A stretch of DNA of 52,166 nucleotides from an uncultured Gammaproteobacteria bacterium (GTDB taxonomy: Bacteria; Patescibacteriota; Patescibacteriia; Magasanikbacterales; GWA2-37-8): positions 1 through 52,166 of the forward strand of contig CAZEYR010000002.1 in NCBI GenBank assembly GCA_964516735.1, in the 5' to 3' direction. Positions 1 to 23,755 of the stretch are shown piece by piece (position 1 is the stretch's first letter; each line of letters starts with the position of its first letter). A model generated the notes under the pieces. That model did no database searches, was not told the DNA's origin, and saw only the letters and a program-made list of their open reading frames with translations. Made by a program: the position numbers and the translations under genes.

Positions 1-768
1 GATGAAAAAACTGTAGGCGCTAATGAATTGTGGATTTCATCGGAAGATTTTAACGGTTTGAATCACGCTCCTTCAGTTAGGCATGTATGTCGCGGTGATA
101 AAGAACTCTTTTATTTACAGATGGATTGGAATGGCGAGACTCTTAAACCTGGCGCCACGCAAACTGGTAAGTTAATTGCTGTTGATTCTACAAATGTTTT
201 TCCTATCACTTCAGTCAATAAAGATCCGGAGGTAAAATTGGTTGAAGATAAAAATTCACAATCTCAAAACACAATCACAATTTTAGTTGATGGAAAAAAT
301 ATTATTTTTGATTTAGCGACTAAAAAATTTAGTGAAGTTAAACTAACTCTTAGTGCAATAGAAAAAGAAGCTGAGGTGGTAAATTATGGACCGTTAAAGT
401 TTGTTGAAAAAATCCCTGGTAGGCTGCTCTATAGTGGCGAAGTAGTTATAAACGGTGTCTACGGGTATACGTCAGGCTCTTCGATGGAAGCATCTGATGG
501 ATTGTCTTTTACACCAGATGAAGAAAGTGCAAAATTATTACCTCAATTCGACGTTGTTAGTAATGGTTTTAATGTAAGCAACCGAGATCAGATGATTAAA
601 ATGTTAGGTTTAACCGATGTTGCCAAAGGTAAAATTTGCATAAAAGGCAAAGCTACAATTAAAATAAGTGGTTATTCTTTAAATATCATGGAATTTCAGG
701 CTTATAATTATTCAAAAGTTGTTGAAGTTTTATCTAAAGAAAATTATACTAAGTGTGAATTAAACTAA
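1..768 (+). CDS. hypothetical protein, 5'-partial (frame is open to the window edge; the tracked TTG at 28 is probably internal)
   Basis: Frame 1 has no stop from nt 1 (DEKTVGANELWISSEDF...). No family motif recognised. Stop lies 3 nt before the alaS start. Confidence 0.5.
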   Translation, partial: DEKTVGANELWISSEDFNGLNHAPSVRHVCRGDKELFYLQMDWNGETLKPGATQTGKLIAVDSTNVFPITSVNKDPEVKLVEDKNSQSQNTITILVDGKNIIFDLATKKFSEVKLTLSAIEKEAEVVNYGPLKFVEKIPGRLLYSGEVVINGVYGYTSGSSMEASDGLSFTPDEESAKLLPQFDVVSNGFNVSNRDQMIKMLGLTDVAKGKICIKGKATIKISGYSLNIMEFQAYNYSKVVEVLSKENYTKCELN

Positions 769-771
769 ACT

Positions 772-2628
772 ATGCTCACCTCCAAAGAACTTCGCAGAAA
801 ATATTTAGATTTTTTTCAAAGTAAAAGACATAAAATTATTCCTTCCGCTTCTTTGATTCCGGAGAATGATCCGACGGTGTTGTTTACTACTGCCGGCATG
901 CACCCCCTCGTGCCATATTTACTCGGTGAAAAACACCCAGAAGGCACTCGGTTGGCCAGTGTACAAAAATGTATTCGCACCCAAGATATTGACGAAGTGG
1001 GGGATAATCGACACGATACTTTTTTTGAGATGCTTGGCAATTGGTCTTTGGGTGATTATTTTAAACAGGAAGCCATTACTTGGAGCTGGGAATTTTTGAC
1101 TGGTAGAGAGTGGCTGGGTTTGGATTCAAGAAAATTGTCCGTATCGGTATTTGCTGGCGAAGCAGAAAATAATATTCCGCGCGATGAAGAGGCGGCTGGT
1201 ATTTGGAAATCACTTGGTATATCGGAAGATCGTATAGCCTATCTTCCAAGAAAAAATAATTGGTGGGGTCCGGCTGGGCAAACTGGCCCGTGTGGTCCAG
1301 ACACTGAAATGTTTTATTGGAAAGGGGAGGGCGAATATCCACCAGCCGGCAGCAATCCGGGGAATAATGAAGATAATTGGCTGGAAATCTGGAATGATGT
1401 ATTCATGCAATATAATAAAAACACGGAAGGGAAGTATGAGGCCCTTAAACAAAAAAATGTGGATACTGGCATGGGGTTAGAGCGTACATTGATGGTATTG
1501 AATAATTTTGTTGATGTTTTTCAGATTGATACATTTTGGCCTCTGATTCAAAAAATACAAGAAATTTCTGGCCATGAATATGTGGAAGGCGGGGAAGTGA
1601 CTAAATCTATGCGTATCGTGGCTGACCATATACGCACGGCCACTATGATTATGGGTGATAATAAAAAGATCGCTCCGTCCAATGTGGACCAGGGTTATAT
1701 TGTGCGTCGGTTGATTCGTCGCGCGGTGCGCCATGGCCGTCAGTTGGGGATTAAAGAAAATTTTTGTTCACAGATTGCTGAAGAAGTAATTAAAATTTTT
1801 GCTGATGTTTATCCGGAAGTAGTAAAGAATAAAGAGTTTGTTTTGAATGAAATGGCCAAAGAAGAAAGTAAATTTAGAAATACGATCGAGCAAGGTTTGA
1901 AAGAATTTGAAAAATTAGTAGCTGGTTTCCGAATGGCTTTTGAAAAAACTGGAAAATTAGTTAATGAAATTTCTGGCAAACAGGCCTTTAAACTTTATGA
2001 CACTTTTGGTTTTCCTCTAGAAATGACCCAAGAGTTGGCCGTAGAAAATAATTTGAAAGTAGATGTGACTGGGTTTAAAGAAGCTTTTGAAAAACATCAA
2101 GAGCTCTCTCGTGCTGGTGCAGAACAAAAATTCAAAGGTGGTTTGGCTGATACCGGCGAAATGTCAGTAAAATATCACACTGCCACCCACTTATTACACG
2201 CCGCTTTGCGCAAAGTTTTAGGTACACACGTGGAGCAAAGAGGTAGTAATATCACCGCCGAACGTCTGCGTTTTGATTTTTCCCATCCAGAAAAAATGAC
2301 CGAAGAACAAAAGCAAGAAGTGGAAAGATTAGTTAATTATGCAATACAGAAAAATTATCCAGTGAGTTTTGCTGAGATGGCCGTCGCCGAAGCCAAAGCC
2401 AAAGGTGCTATGGGTTTGTTTGAAGATAAATATGGTAATAAAGTAAAAGTGTATTCGGTTGGCGATCCAGAACAAATGCCGGATGCTCACGAAGACGCTC
2501 TAACTTTCTCTAAAGAAATTTGTGGCGGCCCACATGTGGAAAATACTGGTGTGCTCGGGAAATTTAAAATAAAAAAAGAAGAGGCCGTTTCTTCAGGTGT
2601 TAGAAGGATTAAAGCAGTTTTGGAATAA
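772..2628 (+). CDS. alaS: alanine--tRNA ligase, short form (catalytic plus editing domains, no C-Ala domain)
   Basis: N-terminus MLTSKELRRKYLDFFQSKRHKIIPSASLIP...TTAGM is typical of class II AlaRS. Editing-site motifs HTATHLLH and CGGPHV are near the C-terminus. The protein ends right after the editing domain. Confidence 0.93.
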   Translation: MLTSKELRRKYLDFFQSKRHKIIPSASLIPENDPTVLFTTAGMHPLVPYLLGEKHPEGTRLASVQKCIRTQDIDEVGDNRHDTFFEMLGNWSLGDYFKQEAITWSWEFLTGREWLGLDSRKLSVSVFAGEAENNIPRDEEAAGIWKSLGISEDRIAYLPRKNNWWGPAGQTGPCGPDTEMFYWKGEGEYPPAGSNPGNNEDNWLEIWNDVFMQYNKNTEGKYEALKQKNVDTGMGLERTLMVLNNFVDVFQIDTFWPLIQKIQEISGHEYVEGGEVTKSMRIVADHIRTATMIMGDNKKIAPSNVDQGYIVRRLIRRAVRHGRQLGIKENFCSQIAEEVIKIFADVYPEVVKNKEFVLNEMAKEESKFRNTIEQGLKEFEKLVAGFRMAFEKTGKLVNEISGKQAFKLYDTFGFPLEMTQELAVENNLKVDVTGFKEAFEKHQELSRAGAEQKFKGGLADTGEMSVKYHTATHLLHAALRKVLGTHVEQRGSNITAERLRFDFSHPEKMTEEQKQEVERLVNYAIQKNYPVSFAEMAVAEAKAKGAMGLFEDKYGNKVKVYSVGDPEQMPDAHEDALTFSKEICGGPHVENTGVLGKFKIKKEEAVSSGVRRIKAVLE

Positions 2629-5367: not shown

Positions 5368-6174
5368 ATGGAGAATTTACTTTTACCATCTAAAGTAGAA
5401 TTCCAAGCCGGTAAGGCCCCGCATACAGGTACTGTGGTGATTACACCATGTTATTATGGTTATGGCACCACCTTGGGCAACGCTTTACGTCGTGTCTTGT
5501 TGTCTTCTCTTCCGGGTGGCGCGGTTGAGGCCTTTAAAATCAAAGGCGCTCAACATGAGTTTAGTACAGTTGGTGGCGTGAAAGAAGACGTAGTAGAAAT
5601 TACTTTAAATTTAAAACAATTAGTAGTAAAAGTTTTTTCTGATGATCCGGTTATTTTAAATATTTCTAAAAAAGGTCTCGGCCCAGTAACCGCTGGTGAT
5701 ATAGAGGCTAATTCTGCGGTTGAAATTATTAACAAAGATTTGGTAATCGCTACTGTAACCGAAGATAAAACTTTTGAAATGGAAATTGTAGTTGGACGCG
5801 GTCGCGGTTTTAAAACTGCCGAAGAAAAAGAAAGAAAAAATTATGATTTGGGTACTATCGTAGTGGACTCAGTGTACACTCCGGTAAAAGATGTTGGTTA
5901 TTTCGTAGAGAATACTCGCGTTGGTGATATTACTGATTACGAAAAATTAACATTGAATATCGAAACCAACGGCACAATTGCTCCATACGAAGCATTGAAG
6001 TTGGCCGCTCAAATTTTAATTGACCATTTTAATATCATCTCTCAGGCGACTGAGGTGGGTGGTAATGAAGAAGTGGTAGAAGAGGCTAAAACTGAAGTTG
6101 TAGAAGCGGTAGCCCCAGCTGAAACAACCGATGATGAGCCAAAAACTGAAAAGAAAACCAAAAAGAAGAAATAA
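5368..6174 (+). CDS. rpoA: DNA-directed RNA polymerase alpha subunit, N-terminal domain only plus an acidic/Lys-rich tail
   Basis: GYGTTLGNALRRVLLSSLPG and the dimerisation/insert domain match alpha-NTD. The protein ends at 268 aa with ...TDDEPKTEKKTKKKK and has no helix-hairpin-helix CTD. Confidence 0.9.
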   Translation: MENLLLPSKVEFQAGKAPHTGTVVITPCYYGYGTTLGNALRRVLLSSLPGGAVEAFKIKGAQHEFSTVGGVKEDVVEITLNLKQLVVKVFSDDPVILNISKKGLGPVTAGDIEANSAVEIINKDLVIATVTEDKTFEMEIVVGRGRGFKTAEEKERKNYDLGTIVVDSVYTPVKDVGYFVENTRVGDITDYEKLTLNIETNGTIAPYEALKLAAQILIDHFNIISQATEVGGNEEVVEEAKTEVVEAVAPAETTDDEPKTEKKTKKKK

Positions 6175-16442: not shown

Positions 16443-18659
16443 TTATTTGGCACTAGCAATGTTTACTTTACCGGCAGCAATCCATTTGCCAATGTTATTT
16501 GGTTCGTCAAAACGATGGGCATAATCGGCATTGCCCATAGTGACAATTATATATTGTTTTTTATTAACTTTTGATTCAATTAGCATTATTAGCACACCGC
16601 CGGCTTCGTCGGTATAACCAGTTTTACTGGCTAATATCCGATAATTTCTGCCCGTCATATCAATAATTTGGTTGGTATTTTTAAGAGTGTGACTAGAAGT
16701 TTTGTTTTTGTTTACTAATTCTCTAAAAGTATAACTAGTCTGACTAAGAGCTGTTTTAATAGTAGCATTGCCCAAGACTTTGGTAAATATCTTTAACAAA
16801 TCTCGAGGAGTTGACTCGTTTTTTTCACTTAAGCCAGTAGTATCGGCAATGGAGGTATTATCAGCACCCCATTCTTCTAATTGCTGATTGATATTGTATA
16901 TAAAGTCTTCTTCACTTTTGTTTACCCCTTTGGCCACCATCCGAGCGGCGTTGTTGATGGAGCCGACTAGCATAGCGTTAAAAATATCTTTGTTGGATAA
17001 TTTTTCTCCATCCACCAAACCCAAGGGGTTGTTATAGGCTTTATATTCGTTATTTTGGTAGATTGTAGCTTTTTTGAAATCATATTCTTCGGTCAAAGCT
17101 TGGTAGGCAGTCAAAAGCTTGGTGAGGGAAGCAATCGGACGTTTGGTGTCAATATCTTTGCCGGAAATAATGCGGCCGCTTGGATATTCAGCTACTAAAT
17201 AAGTCGGACTTTTTTTGGTTTTGTATAGATCTTCTACCAGCACTTCGCTGTCTCCTAAAAATTTATTTTTTGAAGATAATAAACTAGCGTTTAGATAGAT
17301 TGGGTCGCCGGCTAAGATATTGTTTAGCGTTAATTGGCTAACAGTAGTAACATTGGATTTTTTATAACCCATGGCAATAAAAGTATCCTCGTCAGCAATG
17401 CGTCGTTTTTTTCCTTTTTCTACAACATAAATTTTACTGCTACCATTAGTTTTTAAAAGGGTGCCATCTTTAAATTGGGCCGGTAAATCAGCGGTTTGAT
17501 ATTGATTCAATTCTTTTACTTTATGTTTTTCAATTTTTAAATTTTTATAATTGATGTCGACTATTTTTTTATCAGTAATCGGCGTTAATACATTGTCCTT
17601 AAAAAGATAATAAGCGTTGTTTAAATCAGTGATTTGGTAAATTACGCCTTGAGGGGCGGTGGCGCCAGAGGTAATTTGGCTGCCGACAGTATAAGCGGCC
17701 AAGTCAATTAAATTTACTTCCATAATCTCTTGCGGATTATATCCGAGTTGGCGCACTACTTCGTCACTAGCAAATGGACGCAAAATATCATAATCCAATA
17801 AGTAAGTAGTTGAACCGGATTTTAAAATGGAATAATTTGGAAAATTTAATTCTGGACCGACTGGATAATTGCTTAGTTCACTATCTGGTACGGTAATTAC
17901 CATTTTAGGATCGGCGCGACTAATTAAAACAGTTTGGCTTTTAAATTTTCTTTTTTGGCCATTTTGTAATAGCCAAATGTCCGTAGAACTAGCAGATTTG
18001 ATCAAAGAACCATCCGGATATATCTGAGTAAACCAAGTATTCCAAATACGACTAAAATTTTGATTGCCGTGCAAGTGAGGAGTGTAAGTATATAAGAAGG
18101 CAGTGGCCCAAGACTCAGGAATAATTGTTTGTCCATCAATCATAGTAGCTAGACCCTTCTTTTTTACAAAACTTTTATCTTCATTGTCATAATACCAACG
18201 GAAAACACCCGCGGCATTGTCCACTTGATTGCCGAAACCTTTGTGTTTTTGCAATTTCGGGTCATCCATGCTGCAGCTGTCGCAAATAGAATAACCGGCT
18301 GCCCAATCTAGTTGTTTTTGACTAGGATTGTCATCAGTTATTAAACTTTGTTCTTTTTGCAAAGTAACCAATAAAAATTTAGGGTTTATTTTGTAAGCTT
18401 GGGCGGCATCATAGATAATTTCTGCTGCGGATTTTAATACGCCTTTTGCATCTGGACAAAAATAATTTTTTAAATAAGAGCCTTTGCCTTCCAAAAATTT
18501 TTGGATGTCGTTAATTGACCACGCATTACAATCTTGGATTTCAGTATCAGAAATAATAAAATGTGGGTTAAAATCGACGGCCAATGCGGTATGAGTTGGA
18601 GACAATAAAGCAAAAACAGTTAAAATAGCAATTATTTTAGGTAAAAATTGTCTAATCAT
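16443..18659 (-). CDS. secreted D-alanyl-D-alanine carboxypeptidase (S11 PBP5-type C-terminal domain) with a large N-terminal domain of unclear function
   Basis: C-terminal SLTK (SxxK), SIN (SxN) and KTG motifs. Signal-peptide-like MIRQFLPKIIAILTVFALLSPTHTALA starts at the Met at 18659. The tracked start at 18698 lies inside the putative -10 box. Confidence 0.8.
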   Translation of the reverse strand: MIRQFLPKIIAILTVFALLSPTHTALAVDFNPHFIISDTEIQDCNAWSINDIQKFLEGKGSYLKNYFCPDAKGVLKSAAEIIYDAAQAYKINPKFLLVTLQKEQSLITDDNPSQKQLDWAAGYSICDSCSMDDPKLQKHKGFGNQVDNAAGVFRWYYDNEDKSFVKKKGLATMIDGQTIIPESWATAFLYTYTPHLHGNQNFSRIWNTWFTQIYPDGSLIKSASSTDIWLLQNGQKRKFKSQTVLISRADPKMVITVPDSELSNYPVGPELNFPNYSILKSGSTTYLLDYDILRPFASDEVVRQLGYNPQEIMEVNLIDLAAYTVGSQITSGATAPQGVIYQITDLNNAYYLFKDNVLTPITDKKIVDINYKNLKIEKHKVKELNQYQTADLPAQFKDGTLLKTNGSSKIYVVEKGKKRRIADEDTFIAMGYKKSNVTTVSQLTLNNILAGDPIYLNASLLSSKNKFLGDSEVLVEDLYKTKKSPTYLVAEYPSGRIISGKDIDTKRPIASLTKLLTAYQALTEEYDFKKATIYQNNEYKAYNNPLGLVDGEKLSNKDIFNAMLVGSINNAARMVAKGVNKSEEDFIYNINQQLEEWGADNTSIADTTGLSEKNESTPRDLLKIFTKVLGNATIKTALSQTSYTFRELVNKNKTSSHTLKNTNQIIDMTGRNYRILASKTGYTDEAGGVLIMLIESKVNKKQYIIVTMGNADYAHRFDEPNNIGKWIAAGKVNIASAK

Positions 18660-18721
18660 AAAAAATATTGGTAAATTGTTACCAATATTATAACACATTG
18701 ACGTACAGAAGAAAAGCCGGG

Positions 18722-18750
18722 TTGACTTCTTGTTTTGAAAGTAGTTTAAT
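18722..18750 (+). promoter_or_regulatory. sigma70-type promoter driving the G+C-rich unit
   Basis: TTGACT (18722-18727), 17 nt spacer, TTTAAT (18745-18750). Confidence 0.5.
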
Positions 18751-18756
18751 TAAATT

Positions 18757-19100
18757 AAGGAGGTCCCCCAAAAGGGGAAGGAGGTGCACCAATGAGTGCA
18801 AAATCACTAATCAGAGAGGAGGTTGACAAATACCTGCAACATTCCAACGAAATCGCGATTGCGCACGAACTCCGGGAGGTGGAGCGGGGAGTGTGTGAAC
18901 ACTGTAAAACTCCGAATCCCGGACAACCCAAACGGTGTCGCATGTGCGGTGCCAAATTGCGGCGGTAGAGAATTCCAGCTGCACAAAGGAAGTCAACCTG
19001 ATGAGTCAGTATAAGGTGGTGCACCAACGAACCCTGCTCGCGCCACCTGCTGTGCGTCTAAATTTTGGACTCACAGCTTATGGCCAGCGAGCGGGGTTTT
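18757..19100 (+). ncRNA. candidate structured RNA of about 340 nt; RNase P RNA-like motifs but atypically compact and with a non-canonical P4
   Basis: Has its own promoter and a terminator (CCCTGCTCGC 19032-19041 / GCGAGCGGGG 19087-19096 plus T-run). Helices are perfectly nested: GGTGCACC 18783-90 / 19018-25; AGGTTGAC 18820-27 / GTCAACCT 18992-99; TCCGGGA 18871-77 / TCCCGGA 18917-23; GGAG/CTCC; AGTGT-GTGA-ACACT 18890-18903 (GNRA loop). Four overlapping open frames are typical of a G+C-rich RNA gene in an AT-rich genome. Confidence 0.45.
18792..18968 (+). CDS. alternative reading of the same locus: 58 aa zinc-ribbon mini-protein
   Basis: AAGGAGGT sits 7 nt upstream of the ATG. Hand translation: MSAKSLIREEVDKYLQHSNEIAIAHELREVERGVCEHCKTPNPGQPKRCRMCGAKLRR (CxxC-x12-CxxC). 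Codon usage (CGG, GCG, CTC, CCC) is unlike the neighbouring genes. Confidence 0.3.
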   Translation: MSAKSLIREEVDKYLQHSNEIAIAHELREVERGVCEHCKTPNPGQPKRCRMCGAKLRR

Positions 19101-19103
19101 GTT

Positions 19104-21737
19104 TTATTTAATTATAATTTTTTCTTTTTCAACCACGATTTTCATGGTCCCGCCTTTTTGAGTTTTTCCAGAGATAATTTCCAGTGATAATTTGTCCAAG
19201 AGTTCGGTTTGGATAGCCCTTTTGAGCGGACGGGCGCCGTAATTTTCATCATAGCCGATTTTGGCTAAATATTTTTTGACCGCCTCATCAATATTTAATT
19301 TTATTTTCTTATTTTTTAGACGCTCTTTTACTTTAGTAAGTTGAATTTCTACAATTTTTTCAATTTGTTTTTCGGTTAAGGCATGGAAAATAATAATTTC
19401 ATCTAAACGATTTAAAAATTCCGGACGAAAATTGTCTTTCAAGACACTCATTATCATCTGACGAGCTTTTTCCTCATCGGCTCCTTTCTTTTTTTTCCCG
19501 CCTTCAGCAAAGCCGAATTCACCATGTTTATTCATGTCCAAAAGAGCTTGACCACCCAAGTTGGAAGTCATGATAATTATGGTATTTTTAAAATTCACAG
19601 TTCGGCCTTTGGCGTCGGTCAATTTACCATCGTCCAAAATTTGTAGCATGATATTAAAGACATCGGGGTGGGCTTTTTCTATTTCATCAAATAATATTAC
19701 CGCGTATGGACGACGACGAATAATTTCAGTTAGCTGGCCTCCTTCTTCATAGCCGACATACCCCGGAGGAGAACCGATAATTTTAGAAATAGCGTGTTTT
19801 TCCATGTACTCACTCATGTCTACTCGGACTAAGGCTTCTTCGGTATCAAACATAAATTCCGCTAAAGCTTTGGCTAATTCGGTTTTGCCTACGCCGGTTG
19901 AACCCAAAAAGATAAAGGATCCGATTGGCCGGTTTGGCTCGGAAATTCCGGCTCGAGAACGACGGATGGCGTTTGACACCACAGTTACCGCTTCGTCTTG
20001 GCCAATTACCCGTTTGGTTAACTCTTTTTCCATGTTAGCTAATTTAGAGCTTTCACTTTGCAACATTCTTTTTAGTGGAATACCAGTCCAGCGCGCTACC
20101 ACTCCGGCGACATCTTCTTCAGAAATTTCTTCTTTGAGAATGCCACGAGATTTTTGTAAGTTAGCTAATTTTTTTTCATCTTCTTTAATCGTTTTTTCCA
20201 AATAGGGGATAGAGGCGTAGCGAATCTCAGCCACTTTTTGCAGGTCGCCTTTACGCTCTTCGATCTCCGCTTTTTGTTTTAATTGATCAATTTCTTTTTT
20301 GTGCTTGTGGATTCTTTCAATGGTTTCTTTTTCATTTTTCCACTTAACTTCTAATTCCGAACTTTTTTCTTTTAATTCGGCCATTTCTTTTTCAATTTTT
20401 TTTAAGCGCATCTTAGAATCTTCATCTTTTTCTTTCTGTAAAGCGCGTTTTTCAATTTCAAATTTAGTGATGCCGCGTTTCATTTTATCTAATTCTTCTG
20501 GCATAGAGTCAATTTGTAAACGCAAACCAGAAGCCGCTTCATCAATTAGGTCGATCGCTTTGTCCGGTAAAAAGCGATCAGTAATATAGCGTTCAGATAA
20601 TATCACTGAAGCAATTAAGGCCGCGTCAGTAATGCGGACGCCGTGATGCACTTCGTATTTTTCTTTGATACCGCGCAAGATAGAAATAGCGTCTTCTTCT
20701 TTAGGCTCATTGACGAGCACTGGCTGAAAACGACGCTCCAAAGCGGCATCTTTTTCTATATATTTTTGGTATTCCTTTAAAGTAGTGGCACCGATAGTGT
20801 GTAATTCACCGCGAGCCAACATAGGTTTAAGCATATTAGAAGCGTCCATAGAGCCATCGCTGCCACCAGCTCCGACGATAGTGTGTAATTCATCAATAAA
20901 CAAGATAATTTTGCCAGCGGATTTATTAATTTCTTTCAAAACCGCTTTTAATCTTTCTTCGAATTCACCGCGAAATTTAGTGCCAGCTAAAAGTGAACCA
21001 ATATCCAGAGTAAAAATATCTTTATTTTTTAAAGAATCCGGCACGTCTCCATTGATGATACGTTGAGCCAAACCCTCCACAATAGCGGTTTTTCCGGTGC
21101 CCGGCTCACCAATTAAGACCGGATTATTTTTGGTACGACGGGCCAAAATTTGCATCACCCGACGAATTTCGTCGTCGCGACCAATCACTGGGTCAATTTT
21201 TTCTTTACGAGCCAGCTCGGTTAAATTTTTTCCGTATTTTTCTAAAACATTGTATTTGCTCTCTGGCTCAGGGGAGTCTACTTTTTGAGTGCCTCGTATA
21301 GAGGCCAAAATTTTTAAAACATTTTCATAATTTACTCCATGTTTAATCAAAAAATCACTGATCGGATTTTTGTTCGTTAAAAAAGCTAAAAGCAGATGTT
21401 CTACACTTATATATTCATCGCCGATTTTTTTAGCTTCGTTGGTGGCATTCTGAAAAATATGCAGCATATTCTGACCAAGCATGATTTGTCCGGCAGCTGT
21501 TTGGACAATTTGTTTTTGTTCGGGTAAGCGATTTATAATTCCTTGTGTACTTAATTGTATATCTGATAGATTAGCGTTTAATTTTTGCAATACCGAAACC
21601 ACAATTCCATCCGGATCATTAAGAAGAGATAAAAATAGGTGTGGTGGTTCAACCTGTTGCTGGTTGTTTGCAAAAGCGATTTGAGCCGCTTTTTGTATAG
21701 CTTCTTGAGATTTATTAGTAAAATTTTGTGGAATCAT
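19104..21737 (-). CDS. clpB: ATP-dependent chaperone ClpB
   Basis: 877 aa. Two AAA+ modules ([15 protein letters not shown]; [15 protein letters not shown]), a Clp N-domain and a long coiled-coil middle domain. Confidence 0.95.
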
Positions 21738-23485: not shown

Positions 23486-23755
23486 TTATCTGTGGAAGGG
23501 CTCAAAATCTATCTCGCCGGTCAATATGTCCAGAATCCTCACCGGCATGGTGTGATTGCTGGAAAAACTTAAATATTTATCGCCCACCCAGCGGCCGTCT
23601 ATATTCTGGCACACCAGAACGGTAGTGTCAGATGTTTTCTGAAAAGGGGCCGAGAATGAGATCCAGGCGTGGCGAGCAATGGCCCAGAGGGGCAGATTTT
23701 GAAAAAGAACGATTTCCTCGTCGTACATCGGTTTAATAGGGTCTTTTTGTGTCAT
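23486..23755 (-). CDS. hypothetical protein, 89 aa, compositionally atypical (G+C-rich third positions)
   Basis: Single long open frame, with GGGGGT 6 nt upstream of the ATG. No recognised motif. Codons such as CTG, CCC, GCC, CGC and TCG are rare in neighbouring genes. Confidence 0.55.
   Translation of the reverse strand: MTQKDPIKPMYDEEIVLFQNLPLWAIARHAWISFSAPFQKTSDTTVLVCQNIDGRWVGDKYLSFSSNHTMPVRILDILTGEIDFEPFHR

Follow-up and report, generated by a model that had tools for sequence, protein, structure and literature searches.

A G+C-rich mini-gene beside clpB in Patescibacteria: a predicted zinc-ribbon microprotein and a candidate 5'-3' clamp in its mRNA

What is the compact G+C-rich island at positions 18722 to 19100 of contig CAZEYR010000002.1 (assembly GCA_964516735.1), from an uncultured bacterium that GTDB places in the Magasanikbacterales? 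An initial annotation of this DNA, of which we analysed the whole 52,166-nt stretch (hereafter the window), had hesitated between a miniaturised or divergent RNase P RNA, another structured RNA, a dual-function RNA, and a horizontally acquired mini-gene for a zinc ribbon. Our analysis points to a gene, whose mRNA has a conserved shape of its own. On the substitution pattern of its homologues the 58-codon open reading frame (ORF) is coding; helices in the untranslated regions (UTRs) are conserved and covary among the aligned homologues; and the locus varies in presence among relatives. We favour, at a probability of roughly 60%, a microprotein gene whose translation or stability would be gated by pairing of the 5' UTR with the 3' UTR, and whose mRNA is selected both as a structure and as a coding sequence.

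The open reading frame and its relatives

Two features raise the coding question:

18792..18968, plus strand: coding sequence of a 58-aa protein, stop codon included, with a predicted N-terminal helix and a C-x2-C-x3-N-x6-C-x2-C zinc ribbon.
18778..18785, plus strand: Shine-Dalgarno sequence AAGGAGGT, 6 nt before the ATG, with GGAGG present in six homologues.

As expected for such DNA, all six reading frames are open in the G+C-rich stretch, so the length of the ORF is by itself no evidence of coding, and relatives of its product (whose sequence includes MSAKSLIREEVDK...) were compared. Five short Logan contigs, from the same species as the window, carry the identical protein. Searches by indexed words, queried with the 58-aa protein or with a profile built from two sequences, returned only the two known clusters, and a peptide-pattern scan of viral contigs gave nothing. 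When 1.84 billion representatives were searched exhaustively with HMMER, a single full-length relative came up, P0006 (56 aa, 51% identity), on a contig (L009) with the same arrangement, convergent with the clpB 3' end. ClpB synteny and a DNA-pattern scan together added four further lineages (L012, L014, L015 and L016). In L012, whose ClpB is 80% identical to that of the window, a homologous element with a 43-aa ORF lies at clpB, and a 17-nt block, CTGCTCGCGCCACCTGC, is identical in the first three lineages. AAGGUG, a strand of the helix P1 and the invariant CUGCUCGCGCCACCUG of the terminal hairpin, all described below, make up the 3' module; the pattern AAGGTG-N(8-25)-CTGCTCGCGCCACCTG, searched in the JGI metagenomes, matched exactly three times, in L014, L015 and L016, all true homologues. 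Gene callers recovered the protein on just six contigs, out of some 15 billion proteins.

The six proteins, of 43-65 aa, align over the N-terminal helix (EExxK[FY]L) and a C-x2-C-x3-N-...-K[RH]C-x2-C knuckle pair, in which C35, C38, C49 and C52 are invariant, and every insertion or deletion among the six ORFs is in-frame. The 58-codon ORF behind a strong AAGGAGGT had been recognised correctly in the initial annotation, with the cysteine spacing misjudged as x12: the two C-x2-C motifs, invariant across the family as in zinc-ribbon knuckles, are separated by x10, and by x15 in L014. The zinc-ribbon mini-gene that it had offered as a coding alternative is supported by purifying selection among the homologues, and the suggested check of codon-level conservation gave, in close pairs, an excess of third-position differences together with low ratios of nonsynonymous to synonymous substitution (dN/dS):

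L015/L016: dN/dS 0.18; differences at codon positions 1/2/3 of 5/2/15.
L009/L015: dN/dS 0.21; differences of 8/8/18.
L009/L016: dN/dS 0.35; differences of 7/8/16.

Between the window and L009, 10 of 17 identical C-terminal residues are encoded through different synonymous codons. The L012 ORF, of just 43 aa, is without the N-terminal helix. A second ORF in the 3'UTR (ATGAGTCAG...) was considered and dropped, since it lacks conservation and, in L009, ends after 16 codons.

What kind of protein this is can be said only by resemblance. Its scores fall below the Pfam cut-offs for Zn_Ribbon_1 (PF13240; 21.4 against 25 bits, for the L015 protein), DZR (PF12773; 18.5 against 27.3 bits, for the window protein) and the RanBP2-type finger (PF00641; 14.9 against 27). 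AlphaFold predicts a helix over residues 3-32 followed by a zinc knuckle (mean predicted local distance difference test score 78.6), for which Foldseek found no match in the PDB at E<0.3, the nearest structures being NZF/RanBP2 fingers and ribosomal protein eL40; NCBIfam, PADLOC and PHROGs gave no meaningful match. The proteins are hydrophilic and basic, with no membrane helix or hydrophobic stretch. We take the product to be a predicted zinc ribbon of a rare family without a name, known to date solely from Candidatus Magasanikbacteria-like genomes of the Candidate Phyla Radiation (CPR), or Patescibacteria.

The ribosome-binding site stands out from its genome, as the initial annotation had noticed. 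GGAGG precedes the mini-gene in 6/6 lineages, and lies within 20 nt upstream of the start in only one of 47 other window genes (ORFs of at least 120 aa), with a 4-mer core in three more; the leaders of the other window genes are A/T-rich. Across the relatives L010, L012, L013, L017, L019 and L020, GGAGG was found at 3 of 30 other genes, plus the mini-gene. The genome is nearly free of Shine-Dalgarno sequences, in agreement with reports that many Parcubacteria are without the anti-Shine-Dalgarno motif, which a published survey detected in just 48% of their 16S rRNAs (PMC9297842).

In 6/6 lineages the element and clpB converge at the clpB 3' end, even in L012, where the other neighbour differs, and in L014, L015 and L016 the element sits between an S11 peptidase gene and clpB. 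By its ClpB homologues the organism of the window belongs to Candidatus Magasanikbacteria (Patescibacteria/CPR). The ClpB proteins of these lineages are 59-80% identical to that of the window. At the clpB locus of L010/L011 (ClpB 83%), L013 (80%), L017 (76%), L019 and L020 the element is absent, and in L010 and L017 the S11 peptidase gene directly follows clpB after 115 or 71 nt. A covariance model of the 3' module, run over 155 kb of window and loci, found no copy beyond the six known. A locus so fixed across ClpB identities of 59-80% indicates inheritance with repeated loss, a better fit than recent horizontal transfer; the proposed horizontal acquisition is accordingly not supported. Nor is this a repeated or mobile element, since it is a single copy at a fixed locus and its invariant block occurs once in the window even at 3 mismatches, and the 25 exact 16-mer matches in IMG/VR are all chance, none matching the covariance model.

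S11 peptidase synteny in GTDB genomes led to one Magasanikbacteria genome (L006, JACRFW01) with another upstream neighbour and no element. There, a 220-aa lipoprotein-like ORF of 60-70% G+C (332-994, minus strand), in DNA otherwise of 35-45% G+C, lies directly upstream of the peptidase homologue, and might have come from a foreign source into this same intergenic position. In L013 (GCA_030647465.1), which is without the mini-gene, a different G+C-rich, long imperfect hairpin follows clpB at 5650-5790 (gtcattccgac...gctcggaatgac), to which covariance model R1 gives no match.

The fold of the mRNA

Does the message have a structure of its own? Compared with shuffled sequences, the fold is stable at z = -6.7 over 18750-19110 and -3.7 over 18778-19030, with -3.4 for the minus strand. 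The elements on which our reading depends are these (MFE, minimum free energy):

18764..18778, plus strand: 5' hairpin UCCCC-CAAAA-GGGGA at the predicted mRNA 5' end (MFE folds of six homologues, in differing sequences).
18783..18791, plus strand: 5' strand of the clamp helix P1, GGUGCACCA, comprising the last Shine-Dalgarno bases and the spacer up to the start codon (inverted repeat).
18958..18983, plus strand: hairpin across the stop codon, UGCGGCGG/CCAGCUGCA (MFE folds of window, L009, L015 and L016).
19013..19018, plus strand: AAGGUG of the 3'UTR, invariant in 6/6 homologues and running into the 3' strand of P1.
19017..19025, plus strand: 3' strand of P1, UGGUGCACC (inverted repeat, MFE folds, covariation).
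19030..19098, plus strand: two-tier terminal hairpin, with outer stem AACCCUGCUCGC/GCGAGCGGGGUU and an inner stem (MFE folds, helix alignment).
19034..19050, plus strand: conserved block CUGCUCGCGCCACCUGC, lying within the terminal hairpin, in its 5' arm and internal loop.
19097..19109, plus strand: U-tract UUUUGUUUUAUUU after the terminal hairpin, overlapping the clpB stop codon (19104-19106, minus strand).

Each of the six predicted transcripts, folded independently by MFE, contains the 5' hairpin, P1 and the terminal hairpin, and this recurrence in unconstrained folds does not depend on how the sequences were aligned. P1 sets the end of the Shine-Dalgarno sequence, the spacer and the start codon against a 3'UTR segment that starts inside AAGGUG, a conserved 3'UTR complement to the ribosome-binding region of the icaR type; its pairing probability is about 1.0 in 6/6 homologues. 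Its strands read as follows:

Window: 5' GGUGCACCA, 3' UGGUGCACC.
L014: 5' GGUGUACCG, 3' UGGUGCACC.
L009, L015 and L016: 5' GGUGCGU, 3' ACGCACC.
L012: 5' GCGCCA, 3' UGGCGC.

Two pairs of P1 show compensatory change (37-55, A-U to G-C; 38-54, C-G to U-A) and three changes are wobbles, with G-U in L014 and in strain L002. In the 5' hairpin 5 of 7 aligned pairs are changed on both sides, and the stop-codon hairpin, as predicted, uses the conserved ...CUGCGGCGG codons. Over all helices, counted on a UTR-module alignment fitted by hand to the proposed helices, which makes the figures lean toward structure, 14 of 37 pairs are changed on both sides and 93.3% of cells are paired, against 81.6% in shuffles (0/500 reach the observed value) and only 34-48% when partners are slid by 1-3 columns.

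Strain variation was seen at two places. An A to G change at 18791, in L002 and L005, turns the last P1 pair from A-U to G-U and leaves it paired; a 3-nt insertion, AGT, near 19004 in L002 only falls between AAGGUG and a helix specific to the window (described below), with the ORF unaltered.

There are further signs of constraint. The 16-mer CTGCTCGCGCCACCTG (19034-19049) is identical in 6/6 lineages, the 17th base being C in five and T in L014. Between L015 and L016 the 3'UTR diverges by 0.11 per site, against a proportion of synonymous differences (pS) of 0.31. Permuting synonymous codons destabilises the transcript fold in 5/6 homologues (z -2.2 to -3.7), and G+C at third codon positions (GC3) is 0.55-0.86 in the mini-gene, where the 47 other window genes average 0.32 and reach 0.46 at most. 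We also considered an RNA from the minus strand, which folds almost as well; the eleven G-U cells in the conserved helices are compatible with the plus strand only, becoming C-A mismatches on the other, and the covariance model scores far lower there.

The island carrying this message is probably a self-contained transcription unit of about 350 nt. Its G+C content, 0.50-0.58 over 18800-19100 against 0.20-0.31 in the upstream intergenic DNA (18450-18749) and 0.37 for the window, makes this 360-nt stretch the strongest and longest G+C island of the 52 kb, and the initial annotation's account of its composition, promoter hexamers, long terminator hairpin and lack of a same-strand gene downstream holds good. 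Around the mini-gene lie:

18722..18750, plus strand: promoter-like site, as read from the sequence, with TTGACT (18722-18727), a 17-nt spacer and TTTAAT (18745-18750).
19104..21737, minus strand: clpB, convergent with the mini-gene and its constant neighbour in all six lineages.
16443..18659, minus strand: gene for an S11 peptidase (D-Ala-D-Ala carboxypeptidase-like), divergent from the mini-gene.

Transcription would begin near 18757. The TTTAAT -10 is found at the equivalent place in 5/6 homologues, combined at equal spacing with a -35 of CTTTAC/TTGACT in L009, L014, L015 and L016, with TGtATAAT in L012. A consensus scan left the promoter unlisted because its rule demands A at position 2 of the -10 hexamer, and a simple scan overlooked the terminator because its loop exceeds 8 nt. 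At the other end, a G+C-rich hairpin (19030-19098) stands directly before the U-tract UUUUGUUUUAUUU, as in a Rho-independent terminator, and likewise in L009, L014, L015 and L016. The 3' end of the L012 element (5690-5775, minus strand) is built differently: its terminal hairpin has no U-tract and is followed by two more strong hairpins, first a 15-bp stem, CCCGCACCACGGGG..., and then a separate downstream U-tract terminator.

Several observations concern the surrounding DNA. GGTTGACTTC (18720-18729), overlapping the -35 hexamer, is perfectly complementary over 10 nt to GAAGTCAACC (18989-18998) in the 3'UTR, a strand that additionally pairs with 18820-18827; the complement is probably irrelevant if transcription begins near 18757. 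The mechanical 751-aa ORF of the peptidase (16443-18698, minus strand) probably starts at an internal ATG at 18659, giving a signal-peptide-like N-terminus (MIRQFLPKIIAIL...) from about which the homologues align. Between that start and the mini-gene promoter lies a perfect 11-bp palindrome (18664-18689; AATATTGGTAA-ATTG-TTACCAATATT), followed on the minus strand by UUUUUU and then the ATG and overlapping a minus-strand TGtTATAAT-like -10; it could be an operator, terminator or attenuator of the peptidase gene. A second G+C-rich patch of the window (0.54) at 23486-23755 (minus strand), in an apparent gap between larger genes, holds an 89-aa minus-strand ORF (MTQKDPIKPMYDEE...) and has no Rfam match.

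How might such a message work? P1 would enclose the ORF in a loop of some 230 nt, occupying the spacer and start codon, and the clamp would keep translation initiation low, or shield the message from ribonucleases, or both, until opened; 3' processing, temperature or antisense read-through from clpB are candidate triggers. The constant convergent position suggests a link to clpB. Read along the clpB strand, the first hairpin has just 2-4 U in the 8 nt after it, and in 5/6 lineages 5-6 of the 8 nt after the 5' hairpin's reverse complement are U; with the poorer U-tract first and the better one at the far end, clpB transcripts may run antisense across the whole mini-gene.

Several points weigh against this proposal. 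Removing the 3'UTR in silico frees the ribosome-binding site only modestly (mean pairing from 0.51-0.75 to 0.44-0.64), and the first three bases of GGAGG are unpaired even in the closed form. As many Parcubacteria are without an anti-Shine-Dalgarno motif, GGAGG may have no role whatever as a ribosome-binding site. Double changes in P1 are limited to two pairs, three outer pairs are lost in L012, and L012 shows no synonymous-site folding bias; the pairing statistics are inflated by the fitted alignment, and an ordinary terminator accounts for some of the structure signal. The known lineages number just six, of which three are close relatives, and promoter, transcript ends and translation are predictions throughout, as are any regulatory effect of the clamp and any link to clpB.

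Alternative readings

Could the island nonetheless be a non-coding structured RNA (a mini RNase P, another ribozyme or a small RNA), with an ORF merely incidental to G+C-rich sequence? Its strongly stable fold, six open frames and conserved UTR helices speak for this. The nested inverted repeats seen in the initial annotation are real (GGTGCACCA/TGGTGCACC at 18783/19017, AGGTTGAC/GTCAACCT at 18820/18992, TCCGGGA/TCCCGGA at 18871/18917), and a repeat scan bears out its near-repeat of 18-19 nt. The RNase-P-like motifs do not rise above chance. The recommended Rfam search found no family at gathering score in the entire window and, at E<=10 over 18600-19200, chance-level matches only (for example RAGATH-7-assoc, 20.9 bits against a cut-off of 88.5), none to RNase P, 6S RNA, signal recognition particle RNA or transfer-messenger RNA (tmRNA); the five homologous loci gave no RNase P and nothing above chance level at E<=1, and the window holds no tRNA or tmRNA genes. 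The helix proposed as P4 has two strands:

18820..18827, plus strand: window-specific helix strand AGGUUGAC, the 'P4' of the initial annotation, pairing with 18992-18999 (inverted repeat).
18992..18999, plus strand: partner strand GUCAACCU in the 3'UTR, which also complements 18720-18729 (inverted repeat).

The AGGUUGAC/GUCAACCU pairing is perfect and unbulged, within codons E10-D12, and the AAAGUCC/GGCUU core and bulged U, which a conserved P4 of RNase P would keep across homologues, was not found. Neither its sequence nor its register is kept in the homologues, L009 having a different pairing between coding sequence and 3'UTR, and the inner stems within the coding region are likewise out of register. 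An RNase P RNA should also be essential, present in every related genome and subject to non-coding substitution; five genomes are without the element at this locus, and an element missing from sister genomes cannot be an essential RNase P RNA. Together with the dN/dS of 0.18-0.35, the third-position excess, the in-frame indels and the invariant cysteines, these results refute a miniaturised RNase P RNA and leave the non-coding reading as a whole close to refuted. Of the broader suggestion of an unclassified structured or dual-function RNA, the covarying structure stands, as part of the mRNA's UTRs, and nothing shows a function apart from that mRNA. Two further candidates were discarded: a hammerhead ribozyme, for which a CUGAUGAG-like string at 18997-19004 has no Rfam match and no stem II, its C3 equivalent not being conserved in L009, L015 and L016; and mimicry of the 16S rRNA 3' end (AACAAGGU...CCUGC...CACCUCCU) by the 3'UTR, whose local alignment equals that of dinucleotide shuffles in 6/6 homologues.

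The remaining readings keep the gene. In a module resembling type I toxin-antitoxin systems, the zinc ribbon would be harmful, the clamp would hold the mRNA inert and an antisense RNA, such as clpB read-through, would neutralise it. The small gene with its strong Shine-Dalgarno sequence, the long-range helix over the ribosome-binding site like those of hok and aapA1, the patchy presence among relatives and the U-tract pattern that would admit clpB transcripts all suit this idea; we nevertheless think it improbable, as the protein is hydrophilic, without the membrane helix of the hydrophobic toxins, the gene is a single copy at one fixed locus, neither mobile nor multicopy, no conserved antisense promoter was seen, no antitoxin RNA for the mini-gene was identified, and neither PADLOC nor known toxins gave a match. 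Slightly less favoured is a dual-function RNA, in which the 3' module (AAGGUG, P1 strand and 16-17 nt block) would act alone as a 3'UTR-derived small RNA or as a protein-binding decoy. Here the 3'UTR is indeed more conserved than synonymous sites, and the 16-nt block (17 nt in 5/6) is invariant across ClpB identities of 59-80%, beyond what a terminator stem needs; against this, neither the window nor the loci yielded a target or second copy, the block is no more like the 16S 3' end than shuffles are, and its invariance is explicable by double pairing constraints within the mRNA. We give a similarly small chance to an ordinary small gene, whose structure would be a by-product of G+C-rich codons and a normal terminator and whose clamp would regulate nothing. 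Both strands of such sequence give stable folds, the set behind the covariation is small, with an alignment fitted by hand, and the clamp has a modest effect on accessibility in silico. Yet P1 recurs in six independent MFE folds of different sequences, with compensatory changes; high GC3 is held although synonymous sites are saturated between lineages and the genomes stand at GC3 0.32; codon permutation lowers stability in 5/6 homologues; and the 3'UTR is under purifying selection. Perhaps, and this is a longer shot again, the mini-gene, in a lineage that has nearly given up Shine-Dalgarno initiation, is a Shine-Dalgarno-dependent switch for a ribosome- or RNA-binding zinc ribbon, working through GGAGG and the anti-Shine-Dalgarno-like CCACCUG in the 3' hairpin, or its conserved 3' module is a separate regulatory RNA set free from the mRNA. 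If the switch were real, it would parallel the autoregulation of rpsU/bS21 in Bacteroidia that are blind to Shine-Dalgarno sequences, and convergent clpB transcription might couple the mini-gene to heat shock.

Significance and comparison with known systems

For the question with which we began, there is no sign here of a new minimal RNase P RNA. What emerges is a microprotein family and an mRNA structural motif in CPR bacteria, both previously unnamed and without an entry in Pfam, NCBIfam or Rfam. Clamps joining the 5' UTR to the 3' UTR over a ribosome-binding site are experimentally documented in few bacterial mRNAs only; a conserved, covarying clamp in uncultured Patescibacteria, if true, would show that the strategy is old and widespread. 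A lone gene with a strong Shine-Dalgarno sequence is also a natural probe of whether these ribosomes still read such signals. The present weight of the finding is moderate, as it comes from six lineages and from sequence-based evidence.

Set beside known systems, the protein shares with Zn_Ribbon_1, DZR and RanBP2-NZF domains the C-x2-C-x(10-15)-C-x2-C-G-x-x-L knuckle pair. In contrast to these, it falls below the Pfam cut-offs and has no structural match at E<0.3, and the 30-residue N-terminal helix and single-domain format of 43-65 aa are specific to the mini-gene family. In its genomic setting it recalls rpsU (bS21) of Flavobacteriia, the lone strong Shine-Dalgarno gene of a lineage otherwise blind to that signal (PMC9976891, PMC13000453): both are small genes for basic proteins with an almost solitary strong Shine-Dalgarno sequence. 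This is an analogy only, as the mini-gene has no bS21 homology, shows no sign of ribosome contact and is absent from sister genomes.

The proposed clamp has closer company. Type I toxin mRNAs (hok, aapA1, dinQ, tisB) are held inert by a long-distance 5'-3' interaction (PMC6733600, PMC9841398, PMC5066626), and like the mini-gene they are compact, highly folded, 150-400 nt long, patchily distributed and encode proteins of less than 60 aa; those proteins, however, are hydrophobic membrane peptides with a dedicated antisense small RNA, whereas ours is a hydrophilic zinc ribbon. The hbs mRNA of Bacillus subtilis, in which a 14-bp helix of the 5' UTR with the 3' UTR modulates access of RNase Y (PMC5737220), is likewise a short message for a small basic protein, very stable, with a strong Shine-Dalgarno sequence, a structured 5' end and a long-range helix between its UTRs. 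Its helix overlaps an RNase Y site in the leader, rather than the spacer and start codon, and the protein families are unrelated. In icaR of Staphylococcus aureus, a UCCCCUG anti-Shine-Dalgarno motif in the 3'UTR pairs with the Shine-Dalgarno sequence, blocks initiation and creates an RNase III substrate (PMC3868564). There the product is a TetR-type repressor, here a 58-aa zinc ribbon whose mRNA pairing is predicted from sequence, and here it is the stretch after AAGGUG that forms the 3' strand, opposite the end of the Shine-Dalgarno sequence, the spacer and the start codon; in both, a segment of the 3'UTR pairs with the ribosome-binding region of its own mRNA.

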